Virus record (IMG/VR): IMGVR_UViG_3300008107_006173
Strand: one strand, 5' to 3'
Source: a virus
Lineage: Duplodnaviria > Caudoviricetes
Length of the DNA: 64,000 nucleotides
Shown here: one piece after another, positions 7,457 through 50,494 of the stretch
Layout: each line of letters starts with the position of its first letter
How positions within the stretch are numbered: position 1 is the stretch's first letter
Translations under genes and position numbers: made by a program
Notes under the pieces: generated by a model
Databases searched by the model: none
What the model saw: the letters and a program-made list of their open reading frames with translations, nothing else
Told to the model about the DNA's origin: nothing

Positions 7457-7464
7457 TATTTATC
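7457..7464 (-). promoter_or_regulatory. T4-type late promoter GATAAATA
   Basis: Intergenic, about 45 nt upstream of the ATG at 7411. Confidence 0.7.
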
Positions 7465-12665: not shown

Positions 12666-12673
12666 TATTTATC
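12666..12673 (-). promoter_or_regulatory. T4-type late promoter GATAAATA
   Basis: Intergenic, upstream of 12622. Confidence 0.7.
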
Positions 12674-13090: not shown

Positions 13091-13120
13091 TTAAAATCCC
13101 CTAGTCCTTTTAAGTATTTA

Positions 13121-13810
13121 TCATTTTTGATAAAGTATACATTTGGTGATACGAAAGGTCCAGTTGTTGTGCATCATTTTTAGAAATGGATAGTATTGAT
13201 TAAATTCATCCAATTTAGTATAAAACTCTACGCTGCTAGATCCTGTGGGAAATTGGTTGTAAATTTTTAATGCGTGTTCCGGGATACTATCGCCCAGTGC
13301 TGTTAATAGTTCTGTATGTAATACGATACGCTCGTCTTTTCTTAAATTTTGTGTAGCCCTATAGGGCATAAATGCATAAACTTTTGCATCGTATTTGTTA
13401 TACCAATAAGATGATCTCGGCTCAACATGGTATTCCCTAGCCCGCAACAGTTTATGGTGCTCGTCGTTTATGGGCCCAGTTACATGTTTTACAAATTGAG
13501 GAAACTTACTCAATAGTAGTTTGTAATCTTCATATGATACCAAATAACAAAGGATTTCCAGTATGTTATTCTTTGCTGATCTAAATGAACACTTTGATTC
13601 TAAATCTGTTTTGACAACACCATACAGCTCATCTAATAGCTTGAAATAAGCATCTAGATCAGATCTATTTTCTTTGTACGGACTAGCATCAAAAACAATT
13701 TTATATGTATAGGTATTATAATATATTGTTTGGCTAGGTATTATTTTGAAAGGCTTAGACTCATCGCCTAAGACTTCAATATTAGGATGTAAATTTAAAT
13801 TCCGAATCAT
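13121..13810 (-). CDS. Hypothetical protein
   Basis: ORF track 13121..13846. Likely start MIRNLN (about 13810), overlapping the clpA 3' end. Confidence 0.6.
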   Translation of the reverse strand: MIRNLNLHPNIEVLGDESKPFKIIPSQTIYYNTYTYKIVFDASPYKENRSDLDAYFKLLDELYGVVKTDLESKCSFRSAKNNILEILCYLVSYEDYKLLLSKFPQFVKHVTGPINDEHHKLLRAREYHVEPRSSYWYNKYDAKVYAFMPYRATQNLRKDERIVLHTELLTALGDSIPEHALKIYNQFPTGSSSVEFYTKLDEFNQYYPFLKMMHNNWTFRITKCILYQK

Positions 13811-15974
13811 AGTCAACTGTAACCGTGCCCTTGTCGATATTGTCAAACAACACCTTTTTACTCAGCGGCTTTTTAATCTTTTCTTCAAATACTCGCTTCA
13901 GCGGTCTTGCACCCATACTAGGCTCGTACCCTTCTTCGGCTAGCTGTTTAATTGCTGCTTCTGTTAGTTCAATTTTAATGTCGCGCTCATTGGATGCAAG
14001 TAGTTGATTGGTTTCTTTTATCAGACGCTCAACAATCTTGATCATTAGAGTCTTTTCAAGTTTATTAAACTGCACCACACCATCTAAACGATTGCGGAAT
14101 TCAGGAGTAAAGAACTTTTCAACAGCCTTACCAATTTCACCTGTTTTCTTCTGATCGCCAAAACCAATCTTTAGTGTTTCAGCAGCAGAAGCACCTAGGT
14201 TGCTAGTCATAATTAGCACAACATTAGTAAAGTCTACAGTTTTACCGGTACTGCCTGTTAGTCGACCGTCATCCATGACCTGTAGCAGAACCTGTAGTAC
14301 TTCTGGTGCAGCCTTTTCAACTTCGTCAAGTAGTAGTACACAGTTAGGGCTATCCTCAACTGCGGCTAGCAATTGTCCTTGTCCCATCTTGCCTTCAGCA
14401 TGACCAACATAGCCTGGAGGAGCACCGATTAGTTTAGCAACGCTGTGTCGTTCTTGATATTCACTCATGTCAAACTTAACCAGCTTTGCTTGTAATTCTG
14501 CTGCTAGGGCTCGTGCAGTTTCAGTCTTACCTGTACCGGTTGGGCCTACAAACAAGAAACTACCAATGGGCTTGTTTGGCTCTCGGAGTCCACTCTTGCT
14601 AACAAGGATTGATTCAACAATCTTATCAACTGCGTCGTTCTGTCCGTATACTTTATTTTTGATACGAACATCCAAATCTCTATAACCAGTTGTGCTTTCC
14701 GTGTCAACTACATCAACACCAATCTTACTAATTTTAGCAATTACGCTAACAATATCCTTCATGGTTACATCTGTATCTCCGCGTAGTTTTACGGTAGCGC
14801 CAGCAGCGTCAACAATGTCTAGTGCCTTGTCTGGGAAGAAACGAGTCTTTACATACCGATCAGTGAGTTCAACACTCTTGTCTAACAGGGTGTCGTCATA
14901 CTTCACATTGTGGAAATCTTCGTAGTATTCCTTTAGTCCTTTCACAATAAGTTTTGTATCTGCAACATTAGTTTCTTGAATGTCCAGTTTTGCAAATCGA
15001 CGCATCAATGCGCGATCTTTTTCAAAACTTTCTGCAAATTCATCTGGTGTGGTTGCACCAATGGTTAGCAAACGGCCTTTGCCTAGTACAGGCTTAATCA
15101 AGTTAGCAACGTCAACGCTGCTGCCGCCTGCGCTGCCTGCACCCATGATCATATGGATTTCGTCAATGAACAAAATAGTGTTAGGATTAGCTTCAAGCGT
15201 TTGCAATACGCCCTTAATGCGTTCTTCAAAGTCACCGCGATAGCGTGTACCCGCTAGTAGCTTACCAATATCTAGACTGTAAACAATCTTGTTCTTGAGA
15301 ATCTCCGGCACTTCGCCGTCTACGATCTTCTTAGCGAGTCCTTCTGCAATTGCAGTCTTACCTGTTCCGGGTTCGCCCACTAGTACACAGTTATTCTTTT
15401 TGCGGCGAGCAAGAACGTGTATTAGATCGTTAACTTCTTCATGGCGACCAATCAACGGATCAATTTTACTGTTTTCAGCTTCCTTGTTTAGATTTACAGT
15501 ATATTCTTTAAGCTGTTCTTCGTTCTCAACGCTGCGATTAATAGTATCAATATGCTCTAAGATTCTAACTCGTGACAGCCCGTTGATCTCGCAGAAGTAC
15601 TTAGCGTGACAACTTTCTTCTGCTAGAATGCTCAACAACAAATCTAACGGAATAACTTCGTTTCTACTGTTAAAGAGAACCTGTGCTAAACTGCGCTGTA
15701 AAACTCTATCTACGGTGTGGGTTTTCTTCGGCGGCCCTTTTTGCCCGTTGGGTGTTGCAAGTCCGTTGAGACCGGTATCGTTAAGATAATTAGTGATGTC
15801 TGATTTAATTTGGTCAATGTCAACCTCTAAATCAGTAGCTAGGTTTATAATATCTTTGTACTCCAGCAGACACAGCATAATATGTTCTAGGCAGACATAC
15901 TCGTGACCTAGATTATTAGCATTATTAGCTGCTGCAACAAAAATTTTCTCTACTGCTTGATTCTTCTTACTCAT
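13782..15974 (-). CDS. clpA: ClpA-type AAA+ unfoldase
   Basis: Clp N-domain; NBD1 [14 protein letters not shown]; NBD2 [15 protein letters not shown]; IGF ClpP-docking loop; no ClpB middle domain. Confidence 0.93.
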
Positions 15975-16791
15975 TAGTACTGTTACCTGTCTCTTCTTTA
16001 ATAATATTTAACCATTGAATGTGTTGCGGATCTGTTAGTTTGGTAATTGAAATGCTAACTAAAACATATAAGTCGCCGTACCTTTTTGTTTGCGGGTTAG
16101 GCATACCCCAGCCCTGAATTCTCAATCTAGCACCAGGTTGTACACCAGCTGGTATTTTTACTTTTATTTGTCTTTCTGAAATATGTGTGTAGTCAATTTC
16201 TGTACCCTGCATGGCATCCATGGCATCCACATTGACTCGTATAAACAAATCATCATTTTCTCTACCTAGATTGTTTGGATAAGTGATGTTGAGTCTTACA
16301 ATTAGATCACCTGGAGGAAGGTCCTTAAATCTACTGGGACCTTTACCGTGCATTCTAAATTTAGTGCCATCTCTTACACCTGCAGGTATAGATAGCGTGT
16401 CTTTTACATATCCTAAATCTAGAGTAACCTCGGCACCGGTATAAGCCTGTGCTACACTTATAGTAATATCAGTTACACCGTCGGGGTTTCGTTTAACCTG
16501 CTGCCGCCGTCCAAAAATATCCCCAAACATTTCATTGAATGGGCTACCCTGCCCAAACGGGTCATGCCCGGCCCATTCTGGCGGAGTCCAATTTTCATAC
16601 TGTGATGGATTATCGTACTGCGATTTCTTGTTGCTGTCACTGAGGGTGTCGTATGCCTGACTAATCTCTTGGAACTTTTTAATATCACCACCTCGGTCAG
16701 GGTGGTGTTCCATTGCAAGCCGTCGATAAGCCTTTTTGATTTCTTCTGGCGAAGCGTTTCTATTAACGCCTAGAACTTCATAATAATCCAT
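15967..16791 (-). CDS. dnaJ: DnaJ/CbpA-type J-domain co-chaperone (no Zn finger)
   Basis: [15 protein letters not shown]-domain plus C-terminal GMP..GDLYV domain. Confidence 0.9.
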
Positions 16792-18915: not shown

Positions 18916-18945
18916 AACTTACTCCTGTTATAACTATTTATCAGT

Positions 18946-31441: not shown

Positions 31442-32029
31442 TTATCGTTTATTAATTATTTCGTCTACAAGTCCGTAAGCAAGAGCTTCTTGTGCGCTCA
31501 TGAAAAAGTCACGCTCCATATCCTTTGAAAGCTCTTCAAAAATCTTGCCTGCGCTGTTATGCTTAACATAGATTTCAGTGAGGTTCTTCTTCATTGCGAG
31601 AATCTCCTTAACTTGAATTTCCATGTCTGTGGCTTGACCTCGAGCACCGCCACTGGGCTGGTGAATCATATGTCGTGCGCTAGGTAGCATCTTGCGCTTG
31701 CCAGGTGCGCCTGCTTGTGCTAGCAGACTACCCATAGAGCAAGCCTGCCCCATAACAATAGTGCATACATCCGGCTTGATATATTGCATAGTGTCGTACA
31801 TTGCCATCCCGGCTGTTACAACGCCACCTGGGCTGTTAATATAGAAACTAATATCAGCATCGGGGTCTTCGGCTTCTAGAAAAAGCAACTGGGCACAGAT
31901 ACTGTTACTAACTGCGTCGTGTACTTCGCCGTTAAGGAAGATAATGCGCTCCTTGAGCAAACGGCTATAGATATCGTAGCTGCGCTCTCCTGCTGAGGTC
32001 TTTTCGATTACATATGGTACAAAGTTCAT
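31442..32029 (-). CDS. clpP: ClpP serine protease subunit
   Basis: [20 protein letters not shown], catalytic ACSMG / MIHQP / ERDFFM. Confidence 0.96.
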
Positions 32030-32822: not shown

Positions 32823-32854
32823 CGTTAAACTCCTAAATTAGTTTATATCACTAT

Positions 32855-33589
32855 TTATCTGATGACCGGTCCTAGGTTCTGCAAAATATCCCAAGTCTCT
32901 TCCCAATTCTCAACTTCGTAGCATCTGCTTCCGTTTTGTAGTTGATTTACAGCATCAGCAAGGGGCTTATCATTGCCGTTATCGTCCATACGATCACCAA
33001 AGAATTGTACGATATCTCCCTGCATGTATTTGATACATTGACGCTTATCGCGCCCCTTTGCAGTAATATCTATGCCAATCTCTCCAGCCACTTGGGCTAC
33101 AATATTATGTAGCTCAAACTGCTCGTTTAGCCTATGTGCTATTTCAATACGCTCATTGCTGATAGCGTCCCATTCGTGATAGCGTTTTCGCTGCTCTATA
33201 TTTGCATTTCTTCCCACAGTACTATAGTTGAACATAGCACCGCGATCTTCTATATGATTGCCGTAGCGTTCTGAATAAACGCTGGAGTTCAATTCATTGT
33301 TTAAAAATTCAACAAGTTCCGGCGGATAATCAAATTTGTAATCATAAACAATCTGACCTTTCTTGTATACTGTATTCCCCATGCAATTACAGCAGTAGTC
33401 CACAGCATCAACAATTTTTTCGCCCAATTGTTCTACAGTCTTTGGCCTATCACTGCCAGTAACTAATAAAACAGAACCACCCCAATTTTGAACACCGGCT
33501 ACCCATGAAAGGAACCAATCTTCAAATTGGGGTGATATTTTTTGTCTGCTGGGCGTCAATGTACCATCTACATCAAACGCAAAAAACAT
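32855..33589 (-). CDS. HAD-IIB phosphomannomutase-like
   Basis: FDVDGTLTPSRQKI, TGSD, IEDRGAMFNYS, FFGD..GND. Confidence 0.85.
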   Translation of the reverse strand: MFFAFDVDGTLTPSRQKISPQFEDWFLSWVAGVQNWGGSVLLVTGSDRPKTVEQLGEKIVDAVDYCCNCMGNTVYKKGQIVYDYKFDYPPELVEFLNNELNSSVYSERYGNHIEDRGAMFNYSTVGRNANIEQRKRYHEWDAISNERIEIAHRLNEQFELHNIVAQVAGEIGIDITAKGRDKRQCIKYMQGDIVQFFGDRMDDNGNDKPLADAVNQLQNGSRCYEVENWEETWDILQNLGPVIR

Positions 33590-43016: not shown

Positions 43017-43024
43017 GATAAATA
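43017..43024 (+). promoter_or_regulatory. T4-type late promoter GATAAATA, back-to-back with a minus-strand sigma70 promoter
   Basis: About 30 nt upstream of the GTG at 43056. Confidence 0.7.
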
Positions 43025-47308: not shown

Positions 47309-47797
47309 ATGAGCGAAAACAGATATCAAACCGGTTTATTAAGTTGGAAAACAATTTTAGGTGTTTGGCAAAAAGAATTATGGCCTAACAGAACTAGTGC
47401 TATTGAAACACACAGCGCAATGACTTGGCCCTACGAAAACAGCCAACCCAAACATGATATGAGAGTGTTTGATTACATGCCCTACTTTATGGGAGTATAC
47501 GATAAACAGACGTTGATTGGGGTCAACAGCGGCCATCGTACCAGCATCAAACATTTTCGAAGCCGCGGCCTTTGGGTGCATCCTAGTTATAGGCGGCAAG
47601 GCGTGAGTCAAATGCTATTTCAATTAACCGAAGAAGCAGCACATAGAGAAGGTGCTGAGATGATTTGGAGTGTGCCAAGAAAAACCGCCCTATCTGCTTA
47701 TCAGCACTTTGGCTTCGAAACAGTGGGCGGTTTCTTTACTACAGAAACAGCTGAGTCTAATATTTACGCTGTTAAGAAATTACTTAGAGAAGCGTAA
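47309..47797 (+). CDS. GNAT N-acetyltransferase
   Basis: RGLWVHPSYRRQGVSQML acetyl-CoA motif, YQHFGF. Start ATG 47309, 5 nt after CATAAATA. Confidence 0.85.
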   Translation: MSENRYQTGLLSWKTILGVWQKELWPNRTSAIETHSAMTWPYENSQPKHDMRVFDYMPYFMGVYDKQTLIGVNSGHRTSIKHFRSRGLWVHPSYRRQGVSQMLFQLTEEAAHREGAEMIWSVPRKTALSAYQHFGFETVGGFFTTETAESNIYAVKKLLREA

Positions 47798-48313
47798 CCA
47801 ATCAATCATTGTTTCTGCATCAGAAACATCAAACGGATCGCTGTCTGCATTGTCACGGAAGCCCTGCTCAACCCACATCATTTCAACAACGCCGTCGTTG
47901 ACAATCATGCTGTAGCGCCAACTACGCATACCAAATCCTAGGTTAGCCTTATCAACCAAGAAACCCATCTTGCGGGTAAACTCACCTGTGCCGTCTGGGA
48001 TTGCTTTTACCTTTTCTACGCTTAGGCTCTTAAACCATGCGTTCATTACGAAACTATCATTTACTGAAACACAGTAGACTTCATCTAGGCCTAGATCCTG
48101 TGTTAGTTCCTTATATGCTGCTTCGTAACCAGGAAGGTGTGTGCTCGAGCATGTTGGAGTAAAAGCACCAGGGAGAGCAAATACTGCTACTCTCTTGCCC
48201 TTGAACATATCAACAGTACTCAAGTCAGCCCACTGAAATCCTGGAGAAGTATCTGATGTGACACGAACTCTAAATGTAACAATCGGTGCTTTAACTACAA
48301 ATGTACTTGACAC
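47780..48313 (-). CDS. Peroxiredoxin (Prx5-like)
   Basis: PGAFTPTCS, SVNDSFVM, RSWRYSMIVNDG. Confidence 0.93.
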   Translation of the reverse strand: MSSTFVVKAPIVTFRVRVTSDTSPGFQWADLSTVDMFKGKRVAVFALPGAFTPTCSSTHLPGYEAAYKELTQDLGLDEVYCVSVNDSFVMNAWFKSLSVEKVKAIPDGTGEFTRKMGFLVDKANLGFGMRSWRYSMIVNDGVVEMMWVEQGFRDNADSDPFDVSDAETMIDWLRFSK

Positions 48314-48341
48314 TTTATTTCTCCTTGTGTATAGATTATAT

Positions 48342-49547
48342 TTACTGTAACTTTTTTAAAGCATGTGTTAATTCTGAACTTAGTTTTTCAAAATCGTTTT
48401 CAGTCATATATGGCGCGGTACTAATACGCAACAATCCTTTGGGCGCAAACTTATTAACCAAAGGATGAGCGCACAGTTTACCTGTGCGTACTGCTACATT
48501 GCGTTGACCTAATATAACTGACACATCGCTGGGGTTCAGCGAATTGCTTCTAAATGAAAAGATGCTGGATTTAGAAACACCAGGAAACAAAGGTTCAAAT
48601 CCCAGTGCAGACAGTTTATCTTTGATTTCATATTTTATAAAGTAACCGTCTAGATTTCTAATTGCGCTTTGGATTTCATCATATCCCACATAGTTTATAA
48701 ACTCAGCAGCAATACCTAAACCTAAAATACCTGCAATGTTTCTAGTGCCAACTTCGTGCTTAGAAACATCTGGGTAGAAAACTAAATTATCAAAACTCAC
48801 ATGTTCGACGCCACCACCGCCAAACATCAAGGGTTTTAGATCAGCGAACCCGCGTCGCGAATACAATATGCCTACTCCGGTAGGACCAAACATTTTGTGG
48901 CCGCTGAACACCATATAATCAACAGGAACACTTTTAACATCAATATACTCGTGCATGATGCTTTGACACGCATCTAAGCAGGTATAAATTCCTCTGTTAT
49001 GAGCTAAACCGATTATTGTTCGCCAATGCTGCTCTACACCTGAAGCATTATGTATGGACGCAATACTCAGTAATGAACCTGGTTCAGATCGCTCAATCTT
49101 AGCATTAGTTTCATCTAGTTCAGTGTGACCATAATGCTCTAGCAACGACAACACAGCTAGACGTTTATTTTCAGAGGATCGATTTTGTACCAACCAAGGA
49201 ACAATATTAGAGTTATGTTCACCTTCGGTTATGATAACTTGGTTAGTAGATTTGTGCCACTGTGCTACCATGTTTAGCCCTTCGGTAGCACCTGAGGTAA
49301 ACATGATTTGTTCTGGTTCAGCGTTTATTAGATCAGCAATACTACGCCGTGCTTGATCAACTTCTGCTGCTACAAAATCACTCATAGCGAAATCGCTGCG
49401 ATGTATATTGCAGCGTTCGTGTTCGTAGTAGCGATTCATCCTGTCTAGTACCCATTGATGTGTTTGGGTACTAGCAGCATTATCAAAATAAGCCAGCTCA
49501 GGATTATTTTTTAAAGTAGGAAAAAAGTCCTTGGCAAAAAGTTGCAC
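48342..49547 (-). CDS. sufS: Group II cysteine desulfurase (SufS-like)
   Basis: YFDNAASTQ, SGHKMFGPTGVG (PLP Lys), VRTGKLCAHP (catalytic Cys), LRIS. Confidence 0.9.
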   Translation of the reverse strand: MQLFAKDFFPTLKNNPELAYFDNAASTQTHQWVLDRMNRYYEHERCNIHRSDFAMSDFVAAEVDQARRSIADLINAEPEQIMFTSGATEGLNMVAQWHKSTNQVIITEGEHNSNIVPWLVQNRSSENKRLAVLSLLEHYGHTELDETNAKIERSEPGSLLSIASIHNASGVEQHWRTIIGLAHNRGIYTCLDACQSIMHEYIDVKSVPVDYMVFSGHKMFGPTGVGILYSRRGFADLKPLMFGGGGVEHVSFDNLVFYPDVSKHEVGTRNIAGILGLGIAAEFINYVGYDEIQSAIRNLDGYFIKYEIKDKLSALGFEPLFPGVSKSSIFSFRSNSLNPSDVSVILGQRNVAVRTGKLCAHPLVNKFAPKGLLRISTAPYMTENDFEKLSSELTHALKKLQ

Positions 49548-49548
49548 A

Positions 49549-49854
49549 TCACACCTTTTCCATCATGATGTTCAACGGATGACCATTGTGACGACTTAGT
49601 AGTGTGCTTTCGTGAACCTTTTGTTCAGCTATTTCAAAGTTGTAGGTTCCAGCAATGCCCTTGCCCAACTCATGAATTTGAATTGTGATGTCTTTGGCTT
49701 CTTCAATGTTTTTGTTAAACACTTCAATAAGCAAATGTATTACAAATTCCATAGGCGTAAAGTCATCATTCATTATGATTACATTGAAGCGGTCGGGATA
49801 CTTAATATCCGTACGAACCGATGATGACGTTCTAGTTTTAGTTGATGTGCCCAT
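49549..49854 (-). CDS. clpS: ClpS N-degron adaptor
   Basis: VIIMNDDFTPMEFV..IHELGKGIAGTYNFEIAEQK. Confidence 0.93.
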   Translation of the reverse strand: MGTSTKTRTSSSVRTDIKYPDRFNVIIMNDDFTPMEFVIHLLIEVFNKNIEEAKDITIQIHELGKGIAGTYNFEIAEQKVHESTLLSRHNGHPLNIMMEKV

Positions 49855-49873
49855 GATATACTCTACTAATTAG

Positions 49874-49896
49874 CGGGGGAGAGTTTCCCCTCCCCC
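49874..49896 (-). terminator. GC-rich GAAA-tetraloop hairpin after hsp20
   Basis: Minus strand GGGGGAGGG-GAAA-CTCTCCCCC. No U-tract downstream on minus, so it may be a stabilising or processing hairpin. Confidence 0.45.
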
Positions 49897-49906
49897 TGTT
49901 TTTGGA

Positions 49907-50353
49907 TTACTTCTGTTCAATCACCGTTGATGTGGTAATTTCAATACGCTTTGGTTGAAGTTCCGCTGGAACTTCTCGAACCAATTGAATATTGAGCATA
50001 CCTAACTCAAGTGTAGCAGACTTAACCTCCACATGATCAGCAAGAGTAAATTCTCTGCGGAACTGACGGGCACCAATGCCCTTGTGTAGGTACTGTACTT
50101 CTTCAGACACCTTAGGTGATGTGCCTTCTACTCGCAGAGCATTTTTGTCCTTGGTAATGTTTAAATTATCCATAGCAAAGCCGGCAACAGCGAGACTAAT
50201 TACATATTCGTCGTCGCTGATCTTAGCAATGTTATATGGGGGATAAGTATTTGCACTAGGCAAGTTGCGCTCAATTTCATTAAACAATCGATCAAAGCCA
50301 ATTGTTGAACGAGCAAATGAAGGTAGGTCTAGAGTTGTAATTCTTGTATTCAT
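49907..50353 (-). CDS. hsp20: Small heat-shock protein (Hsp20/IbpA-like)
   Basis: IGFDRLF, YPPYNI, LAVAGF, YLHKGIGARQFRREFTLADHVEV, LELGMLNIQL. Confidence 0.95.
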   Translation of the reverse strand: MNTRITTLDLPSFARSTIGFDRLFNEIERNLPSANTYPPYNIAKISDDEYVISLAVAGFAMDNLNITKDKNALRVEGTSPKVSEEVQYLHKGIGARQFRREFTLADHVEVKSATLELGMLNIQLVREVPAELQPKRIEITTSTVIEQK

Positions 50354-50357
50354 AAGT

Positions 50358-50434
50358 ATCTCCTTTATTAAGCAAGATTACGGTTAATGCAACAACTACA
50401 ACACCCATTCGGCATGTTGTAGTCTTGTGTTGCA
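50358..50434 (-). ncRNA. ROSE-like RNA thermometer (cis element in the hsp20 5'UTR)
   Basis: Minus strand AUCUUGCUU-AAUA-AAGGAGAU: U(U/C)GCU pairs with the SD, with a bulged G. Upstream hairpin at 50388-50434. Confidence 0.75.
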
Positions 50435-50438
50435 ACTT

Positions 50439-50494
50439 TATTTATACAGAAAATCTGTATAATTTTAATATAGCGAAAAAATTTTATTTGTCAA
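50439..50494 (-). promoter_or_regulatory. Tandem late (TATAAATA 50439-50446) and sigma70 (TTGACA-16-TATATT) promoters for hsp20
   Basis: Read directly from the sequence. Confidence 0.65.

Follow-up and report, generated by a model that had tools for sequence, protein, structure and literature searches.

A ROSE-like leader conserved on phage hsp20 genes, probably a translational RNA thermometer

The hsp20 locus and the structure of its leader

The object of the analysis was a stretch of 64,000 nucleotides (nt) of DNA from a virus of the class Caudoviricetes (IMG/VR record IMGVR_UViG_3300008107_006173), hereafter referred to as the window. Its minus strand carries an hsp20 gene (49907-50353) encoding an IbpA-like small heat-shock protein of 148 amino acids (PF00011, E 3e-16), and the leader of this gene resembles the bacterial RNA thermometers of the ROSE type. 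The leader is probably a ROSE-like translational thermometer, comprising a stable 5′ hairpin (hairpin I) and a labile hairpin at the Shine-Dalgarno (SD) sequence that would open on warming. The region had been described in an earlier note made from the sequence alone, and its coordinates and layout proved correct: the motif TATAAATA, a long hairpin, AUCUUGCUU-AAUA-AAGGAGAU, ACUU, and AUG are all read on the minus strand, with all leader features located 5′ of the hsp20 AUG at 50353.

The SD hairpin, which corresponds to the terminal hairpin of ROSE elements, occupies positions 50356-50381 of the minus strand. In its core (50378-50358, AUCUUGCUU-AAUA-AAGGAGAU) the anti-SD UCUUGCUU pairs with the Shine-Dalgarno sequence AAGGAG (50365-50360), located 6 nt before the hsp20 AUG. 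The pairs, numbered by the last three digits of the positions, are A378-U358, U377-A359, C376-G360, U375-A361, U374.G362, C372-G363, U371-A364, and U370-A365, and the loop AAUA is at 50369-50366. UUGCU lies at 50375-50371, and its G50373 is bulged between the U374.G362 wobble and C372-G363. Three additional pairs (G381-C356, U380-A357, and A379-U358) are possible in the window phage.

Hairpin I (50394-50424, minus strand) consists of 11+2 base pairs with a bulged G at 50413, a CC/GG clamp, and the loop GAAU at 50410-50407. Its predicted free energy is -14.9 kcal/mol (z -4.32), and none of 200 shuffled sequences folded as well. At 37°C the leader from 50424 to 50351 is predicted to form exactly two hairpins. 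The long hairpin of the earlier note (50388-50434, minus strand; minimum free energy -26.2 kcal/mol, z -3.17) is hairpin I extended by an outer helix of 7 bp, in which 50434-50428 pairs with 50394-50388. This fold was obtained in our predictions, but only the inner part, 50424-50394, is conserved, and the outer 7 bp may partly fall outside the mRNA, since RNA ends were found at 50422-50424. The outer helix is formed by the palindrome GTTGCAAC (50427-50434), located directly 3′ of the promoter motif, and a second GTTGCA (50388-50393), located 3′ of hairpin I. It is restricted to the window and a 91% relative (L001), and its 5′ arm lies upstream of the ends of the RNA contigs.

Conservation and covariation in related phages

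At least 80 IMG/VR loci, on contigs of up to 330 kb, encode Hsp20 proteins 64%–91% identical to that of the window. R1, a covariance model built from the leaders of these relatives, matched the element in 80 of 80 related hsp20 loci, and a search of the window with filters off gave one match (45.5 bits, E 7e-9), so that hsp20 is the only gene of the window with a ROSE-like leader. The relatives share a common plan: the (G/T)ATAAATA motif, one or two hairpins, and then AAUCUUGCUU-loop-AAGGAGA, which makes two or three leader hairpins altogether. The last upstream hairpin has the core xGCC-loop-GGGx, and AAGGAGA is separated from the AUG by 6–8 nt.

Both covariation in the hsp20 leaders of related phages and conservation of the UUGCU/SD pairing, which the earlier note had named among the checks on its proposal, were observed. 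When the 54 unique leaders were simply aligned with MAFFT, 93.2% of the cells were paired versus 82% after shuffling, and the covariation score was 0.342 versus at most 0.064 with the pairing partners slid. On the model-fitted alignment of 60 distinct leaders, compensatory changes occurred in all eight pairs of hairpin I, the bulged G of which was invariant. The cells of the SD hairpin were paired in 99.5% of cases, and five of its seven pairs were invariant. CUUGCU was present in each of the 54 unique hsp20 leaders and in all 60 distinct rows of the fitted alignment, and the U.G pair was likewise kept in 60 of 60 leaders. Pairwise identity was 0.98 in the anti-SD 7-mer and 0.59 in the linker; within the hsp20 coding sequence it was 0.54 at third codon positions and 0.76 at the first and second positions taken together. 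Since the 98% identity of the anti-SD exceeds that of the coding positions, this short sequence is more constrained than the Hsp20 protein.

The 6.9-kb contig JADHSL010000125.1, labelled as part of a Pirellulales metagenome-assembled genome, also carries a phage-type hsp20 gene (68% identity), preceded by the complete phage leader (67.9 bits with R1). The contig most likely comes from a phage and was placed in the bacterial genome by binning, and therefore it gives no clue to the host.

Relation to bacterial ROSE elements

ROSE-like thermometers have two to four hairpins, the last of which pairs U(U/C)GCU imperfectly with the SD and contains a bulged G (PMC11182007). In the window the two hairpins are located in the 5′ untranslated region of a heat-shock gene, both being present in RNA contigs that cover hsp20, and the last of them includes the SD. 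UUGCU (50375-50371) pairs imperfectly with AAGGA, and the bulged G50373 stands opposite the SD next to the U374.G362 wobble.

The closest cellular Hsp20 proteins are alphaproteobacterial, mainly from Rhodobacterales, with 45%–51% identity. The pattern U[UC]GCU...[AG]AGGA was found just 5′ of the start codon in 76 of the 80 closest cellular hsp20 genes, and these bacterial leaders also contain an upstream bulged-G hairpin, GGGAUGCC-loop-GGGUCCC. In bacterial loci R1 gave 13 weak matches (12–18 bits), every one of them on an hsp20 leader. The Rfam ROSE consensus of hairpin I, <<<<<<-<<____>>>>>>>>, i.e., six pairs, a bulged G, CC/GG, and a tetraloop, is the layout of the phage hairpin I, and the terminal hairpin of Rfam ROSE has the same register as in the phage, with C-G, a bulged G, U.G, and U-A opposite GGA. 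The layout of hairpin I and the terminal register are identical in the phage, alphaproteobacterial ROSE (RF00435), and Rhodobacterales hsp20 leaders. Unlike the phage leaders, the bacterial ones have three to four hairpins with a much longer and stronger terminal hairpin, usually UCGCU in place of UUGCU, an SD reading GGAGGAUG or AAGGAUG, and heat-shock-type promoters.

Comparison with the Rfam ROSE covariance models, suggested in the earlier note, gave a divided result. In a scan of 401 nt, ROSE_3 was the best family for the window, on the right strand and in the right place, and its alignment took in hairpin I, but the score of 16.7 bits was below the gathering score of 43. The proposed ROSE-type element on phage hsp20 is supported in that every sequence-level defining feature is present and conserved, hairpin I covaries, and the nearest cellular homologues have ROSE-type leaders, whereas the Rfam gathering scores are not reached.

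The ROSE_3 thermometers of Pseudomonas ibpA (RF02523; Krajewski et al. 2013, PMC3669281) are also two-hairpin elements in the 5′ untranslated region of a small heat-shock gene. They share with the phage leader a stable G+C-rich hairpin I containing AUGCC...GGGU and a bulged G, as well as a short terminal U(U/C)GCU/SD hairpin, and ROSE_3 was the top-scoring Rfam family both for the window and for leaders of cultured phages (34.1 and 27.9 bits). In Pseudomonas, hairpin II melts between 20 and 50°C and hairpin I, believed to confer stability on the transcript and showing no response to temperature, stays closed; induction between 25 and 42°C is 4–6-fold, and flanking G-C clamps were found to be important (PMC3669281). 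The phage helix is A-U rich and lacks such clamps, its anti-SD is UCUUGCUU rather than the ROSE_3 consensus ACUCGCUGA, and its score is under the gathering score of 43 bits. In addition, the leader resides in a phage genome behind a (G/T)ATAAATA motif instead of a sigma-32 promoter, and the predicted stability of its terminal hairpin falls several kcal/mol short of that of the bacterial ROSE counterparts.

Occurrence on other chaperone genes and in cultured phages

Seven relatives harbored a second R1 copy about 2 kb upstream of hsp20. It preceded groES in six of them (L004:949-1012, L012:970-1034, L038:946-1012, L065:801-864, L067:945-1009, and L074:942-1005) and groEL in one (L057:1206-1270), the genes being identified by the Pfam families Cpn10 and Cpn60. 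Other copies were found before dnaK (L200, L212, L247, and L254), and all these copies are two-hairpin leaders. A change from C-G to U-A has occurred at the inner pair of hairpin I in the copies on groES. Only the hsp20 copy was detected by R1 in five large relatives of 237–330 kb; since these and the window show just this copy, the groES, groEL, and dnaK copies are a property of some lineages only.

An exact-pattern scan of IMG/VR for AATCTTGCTT-N2-8-AAGGAGA revealed at least 120 stretches, and downstream genes were listed for 80 loci. Among the matches listed, the downstream gene encoded Hsp20 in 70 cases, DnaK in 4 (Pfam HSP70, 864 bits), and GroES in 2; three other genes had leaders without hairpin I, and one gene with the complete element encoded a protein of 65 amino acids. 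The latter (L197:4137-4401) has no Pfam match, and its leader combines GATAAATA with both hairpins, the one with the bulged G and the one formed by UCUUGCUU and the SD. We regard this gene as a candidate addition to the heat-shock set of the phages.

The element occurs in cyanophages, an OM43 phage, a pelagiphage, a rhizobiophage, and uncultured jumbo phages. R1 matched the hsp20 leaders of Methylophilales phage Melnitz (48.5 bits), Sinorhizobium jumbo phage Phosso (41.5 bits), Cyanophage S-RIM12 (36.6 bits), Synechococcus phages S-SRM01 (36.5 bits) and S-SKS1 (29.1 bits), and Pelagibacter phage HTVC115P (18.2 bits). Cyanophage S-TIM5 scored 10.1 bits (E 0.73) and lacked the ROSE motif. ROSE_3 was listed for Melnitz (34.1 bits, E 4e-4), S-SKS1 (27.9 bits), and S-SRM01 (19.2 bits), and not for the other four phages. 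The annotated hsp20 start of S-SRM01 (NC_070963.1; element at L173:338-394) appears to be the AUG within the conserved GAUGCC of hairpin I, and the element predicts that the true start is at L173:389, 51 nt (17 codons) downstream of the annotated one. A TwoAYGGAY RNA (RF01731, 62.6 bits, over the gathering score) was identified 3′ of the hsp20 homologue of an uncultured Psychromonas (L115:2441-2601) and is unrelated to the leader.

Promoter motif and RNA evidence

The motif TATAAATA (50439-50446, minus strand) has no other exact copy in the window, although about seven would be expected by chance in 64 kb. It belongs to the (G/T)ATAAATA class, which is represented by eight copies and is not commoner than chance. 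All eight are in sense orientation just upstream of gene starts. By a strict criterion, with the motif ending 10–60 nt upstream of a called gene start in the sense direction, six of the eight copies were counted (binomial P 8e-8); the two others precede hsp20 (86 nt) and an open reading frame running off the window. The hsp20 copy alone reads TATAAATA, and the other seven read GATAAATA (873-880, 7457-7464, 12666-12673, 13115-13122, 18935-18942, and 32852-32859 on the minus strand and 43017-43024 on the plus strand). The genes that follow the motif include those of virion structural, tail-fibre, and baseplate-like proteins. The distance from motif to start codon is 11–46 nt for the other copies versus 86 nt for hsp20, and the extra distance is the ROSE-like leader.

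T4-type late promoters consist of a TATAAATA-like -10 element with no -35 element and are located upstream of late virion genes. They are served by a phage late sigma factor (gp55-like) together with gp33 and the sliding clamp, and transcription usually starts 6–7 nt past the motif. In the window, too, a -10-like motif without a -35 element recurs upstream of virion genes, and GATAAATA is a candidate late-promoter consensus differing from the T4 TATAAATA in the first base. The earlier assignment of a T4-type late promoter to hsp20 is supported as far as the recurrence of (G/T)ATAAATA in sense orientation before virion genes is concerned; strictly, what is seen is a recurrent motif with the window consensus GATAAATA, and the RNA 5′ ends lie 15–17 nt past it.

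RNA contigs covering hsp20 were found in Logan in four freshwater libraries from four metatranscriptome studies. Start, strand, and abundance cannot be read from such assembled contigs, and only their ends were used. All of them end at 50422-50424, with no loose ends. These ends are 15–17 nt downstream of TATAAATA; contigs cannot fix the transcription start, and the end may stem from processing. The data suggest that the 5′ end of the mRNA is at hairpin I or within about 10 nt upstream of it, and both conserved hairpins are thus contained in the mRNA. The longest contig (555 nt, 49868-50422) ends 7 nt past a G+C-rich hairpin (49875-49896, minus strand; detected on the opposite strand) that begins 11 nt past the hsp20 stop codon, which suggests that the hsp20 mRNA is a monocistronic unit of about 555 nt.

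Two further features lie upstream of the leader on the minus strand. A sigma-70-like site, TTGACA-16 nt-TATATT (50467-50494), has 11 of 12 matches. Since none of the RNA contigs reaches upstream of 50424, this site was rejected as the principal origin of the mRNA in the communities sampled, and it is probably not the main source of the environmental RNA. An inverted repeat, ATACAGA-TTT-TCTGTAT (50444-50460), read directly, overlaps TATAAATA with its 3′ arm; the same layout is present in L001 with the compensating changes ATACAGG/CCTGTAT.

Genomic context

The window is phage DNA. Among its products are a virion structural protein, tail-fibre and baseplate-like proteins, a ClpP-type head protease, and an RFC-like clamp-loader subunit. 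No DNA match for the window was found among 50,697 phage records, and there is no close cultured relative; the identity of its Hsp20 to proteins encoded in these records does not exceed 46%. An identical Hsp20 is present on contigs of up to 280 kb, and near-identical DNA occurs in freshwater and lake metagenomes. In T4-like cyanophages, as in many phages of aquatic habitats, hsp20 is a hallmark auxiliary gene.

Downstream of hsp20 are genes for ClpS, a class-V aminotransferase (SufS/NifS-like), and a peroxiredoxin, which together with hsp20 form a cluster at 47780-50353 on the minus strand. The proteostasis set of the window comprises Hsp20 and ClpS, as well as DnaJ (15967-16791), a ClpB/ClpA-like double AAA+ protein (13782-15974), and a ClpP-family protease (31442-32029), all encoded on the minus strand.

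Interpretation of the leader

In the proposed thermometer, hairpin I at the 5′ end of the mRNA would probably aid folding and protect the transcript, and the terminal hairpin would be a weak helix of UCUUGCUU with AAGGAG, containing the U.G pair and the bulged G. At low temperature this helix would hinder 30S binding; on warming it would melt, and Hsp20 would be translated. Transcription would proceed from the phage promoter of the (G/T)ATAAATA class, with its start presumably close to hairpin I. Because this promoter class also precedes virion genes, temperature would act on the translation of a chaperone expressed in the late phase.

The predicted free energy of the isolated SD hairpin of the window rises from -8.4 kcal/mol (5°C) through -5.9 (20°C) and -3.0 (37°C) to -0.75 kcal/mol (50°C). 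For the SD hairpins of 54 phage leaders, the medians at 25 and 37°C are -3.7 and -1.8 kcal/mol, compared with -8.6 and -6.1 kcal/mol, respectively, for alphaproteobacterial terminal hairpins (n = 75). The phage thermometer, if it is one, would therefore be tuned much lower, and such tuning would suit lake and sea water. Nearest-neighbour rules miss the special geometry of the ROSE bulged G. The folding predictions were treated as neither support nor refutation, and whole-leader in silico melting curves, which hinge on the position of the 3′ cut, were not used as support.

Several observations weigh against a thermometer. The predicted stability of the phage SD hairpin is low in comparison with Alphaproteobacteria. 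When the first 12–30 nt of the coding sequence are included in the fold, the anti-SD pairs with CAAGA in codons 2-3 (codons 3-4 in the window), and the SD is 60%–90% unpaired at all temperatures. The SD hairpin of the window is unremarkable by itself (z -1.85; 15 of 200 shuffled sequences fold equally well), and for this single sequence chance cannot be excluded; it is the comparison with the relatives, not the single sequence, that decides, and it places the element beyond chance. The SD helix is also near-invariant, and its pairing is backed by a single compensatory change, U-A to A-U in L080. The gathering scores of Rfam ROSE, ROSE_2, and ROSE_3 were not reached in the window or in 20 phage relatives. 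However, hsp20 leaders of 20 bacterial loci gave no Rfam match at gathering scores either, and alphaproteobacterial hsp20 leaders with the ROSE signature, used as calibrators, score 21–31 bits on these three models. Since bacterial ROSE-type leaders miss the thresholds too, this criterion is narrow and failing it says little. The assembled RNA contigs provide a weak hint, and thermosensing by the phage copies is something that we infer.

The most serious competing explanation, although an unlikely one, is a constitutive element in which hairpin I stabilises the 5′ end and a weak SD hairpin sets a fixed, moderate translation of abundant late chaperone mRNAs, the likeness to ROSE being inherited from the bacterial donor of the gene. 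It would account for the very weak predicted SD hairpin (-1.8 to -3.7 kcal/mol), for the largely open SD at all temperatures in folds made in context, and for the location of hairpin I exactly at the RNA-supported 5′ end, given that the Pseudomonas hairpin I is thought to be transcript-stabilising and not temperature-responsive (PMC3669281). However, a fixed attenuator needs no exact ROSE solution, and the U.G beside the bulged G opposite GGA is kept in 60 of 60 leaders. The element is nearly confined to heat-shock chaperone genes (76 of 80 among the pattern matches listed) and is absent from the other seven genes of the window preceded by (G/T)ATAAATA, which also argues against a general attenuator of this kind.

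It is less probable still that UCUUGCUU is bound by a trans-acting factor, either a small RNA or an RNA-binding protein of phage or host origin, or that it forms a two-state switch together with the early coding sequence; the signal would then be other than temperature, e.g., chaperone load or infection phase. The anti-SD is indeed more conserved than the protein-coding positions, and nearly all relatives have a 5–9-bp complement to it in the first hsp20 codons (UCUUG with CAAGA), a helix that folding programs prefer; complements of 5–6 nt occur early in the groES and groEL copies too. In the latter, however, the complement is at chance level (P 0.24-0.87), and conserved Thr-Arg codons confound it in hsp20. 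We identified no candidate for such a factor, and bacterial ROSE elements with the same motif function factor-free (PMC3669281). A role at the DNA level, as an operator bound by a heat-shock repressor as in the CIRCE/HrcA system, is highly improbable and was rejected since the arms pair only as RNA. Such an operator would be in line with the sharing of the element by the classical heat-shock regulon members hsp20, dnaK, and groESL, but the arms form no DNA palindrome, and their pairing needs a G.U wobble and a bulge, RNA features kept in 60 of 60 leaders. The spacing to the start codon is fixed at 6–8 nt, with the SD included, the sequence of hairpin I varies with its pairing kept, and the region is present in RNA.

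The complement in the early coding sequence can be localized precisely. In the window the anti-SD region GUAAUCUUG (50373-50381) is complementary to CAAGAAUUAC (50333-50342), and in the relatives UUAAUCUUG is complementary to CAAGACUAA in hsp20 codons 2-5; at the facing position of the relatives, the Leu codon CUU goes with A and CUA mostly with U. This complement could be an anti-anti-SD or a coincidence. A conserved switch based on this helix was rejected, as it was found in hsp20 and the groES and groEL copies were no better than chance, and the helix is kept as a caveat.

Beyond the thermometer on hsp20, a broader interpretation is offered tentatively, at slightly less than even confidence. 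The element may be a mobile RNA module for thermosensing, and the genes that carry it would make up a phage heat-shock regulon consisting of hsp20, dnaK, groES, groEL, and at least one unknown gene for a 65-amino-acid protein, distributed across phages of freshwater and marine bacteria from different phyla. Its sensing helix, predicted to be about 5 kcal/mol weaker than in Alphaproteobacteria, would be tuned to cool water, and the phages would adjust the chaperones needed in virion assembly to the ambient temperature with no dependence on the host sigma-32 response.

Novelty and significance

Three phage RNA thermometers have been reported: lambda cIII, the fourU element of SPbeta blyA, and a sigma-70 fourU element of gut Caudoviricetes (PMC11182007). 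We found no published phage ROSE element in the literature, in agreement with the statement of the earlier note that none had been described. Like the leader described here, the three known cases are cis-acting structures of phage mRNAs held to couple translation to temperature. They belong to other structural classes (an alternative-structure switch and fourU), act on other genes, and are single cases; none is ROSE-like, located on a chaperone gene, or conserved across many phage lineages. What is new is that a known class of RNA is present in a type of genome new to it, with a different promoter, a weaker predicted sensor helix, and a wider set of chaperone genes.

A textbook bacterial thermosensor design is thus a conserved part of phage hsp20 genes and is reused on phage dnaK and groES/groEL. 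Since the element is present in the cultured phage-host pairs Melnitz/OM43, S-RIM12 and S-SKS1/Synechococcus, and Phosso/Sinorhizobium, the idea is testable at once. If the leaders sense temperature, they would offer synthetic biology very short thermometers tuned to low temperatures, and they would constitute a direct molecular link between water temperature and the protein-folding capacity of the phage, with a bearing on the temperature dependence of infection outcome.

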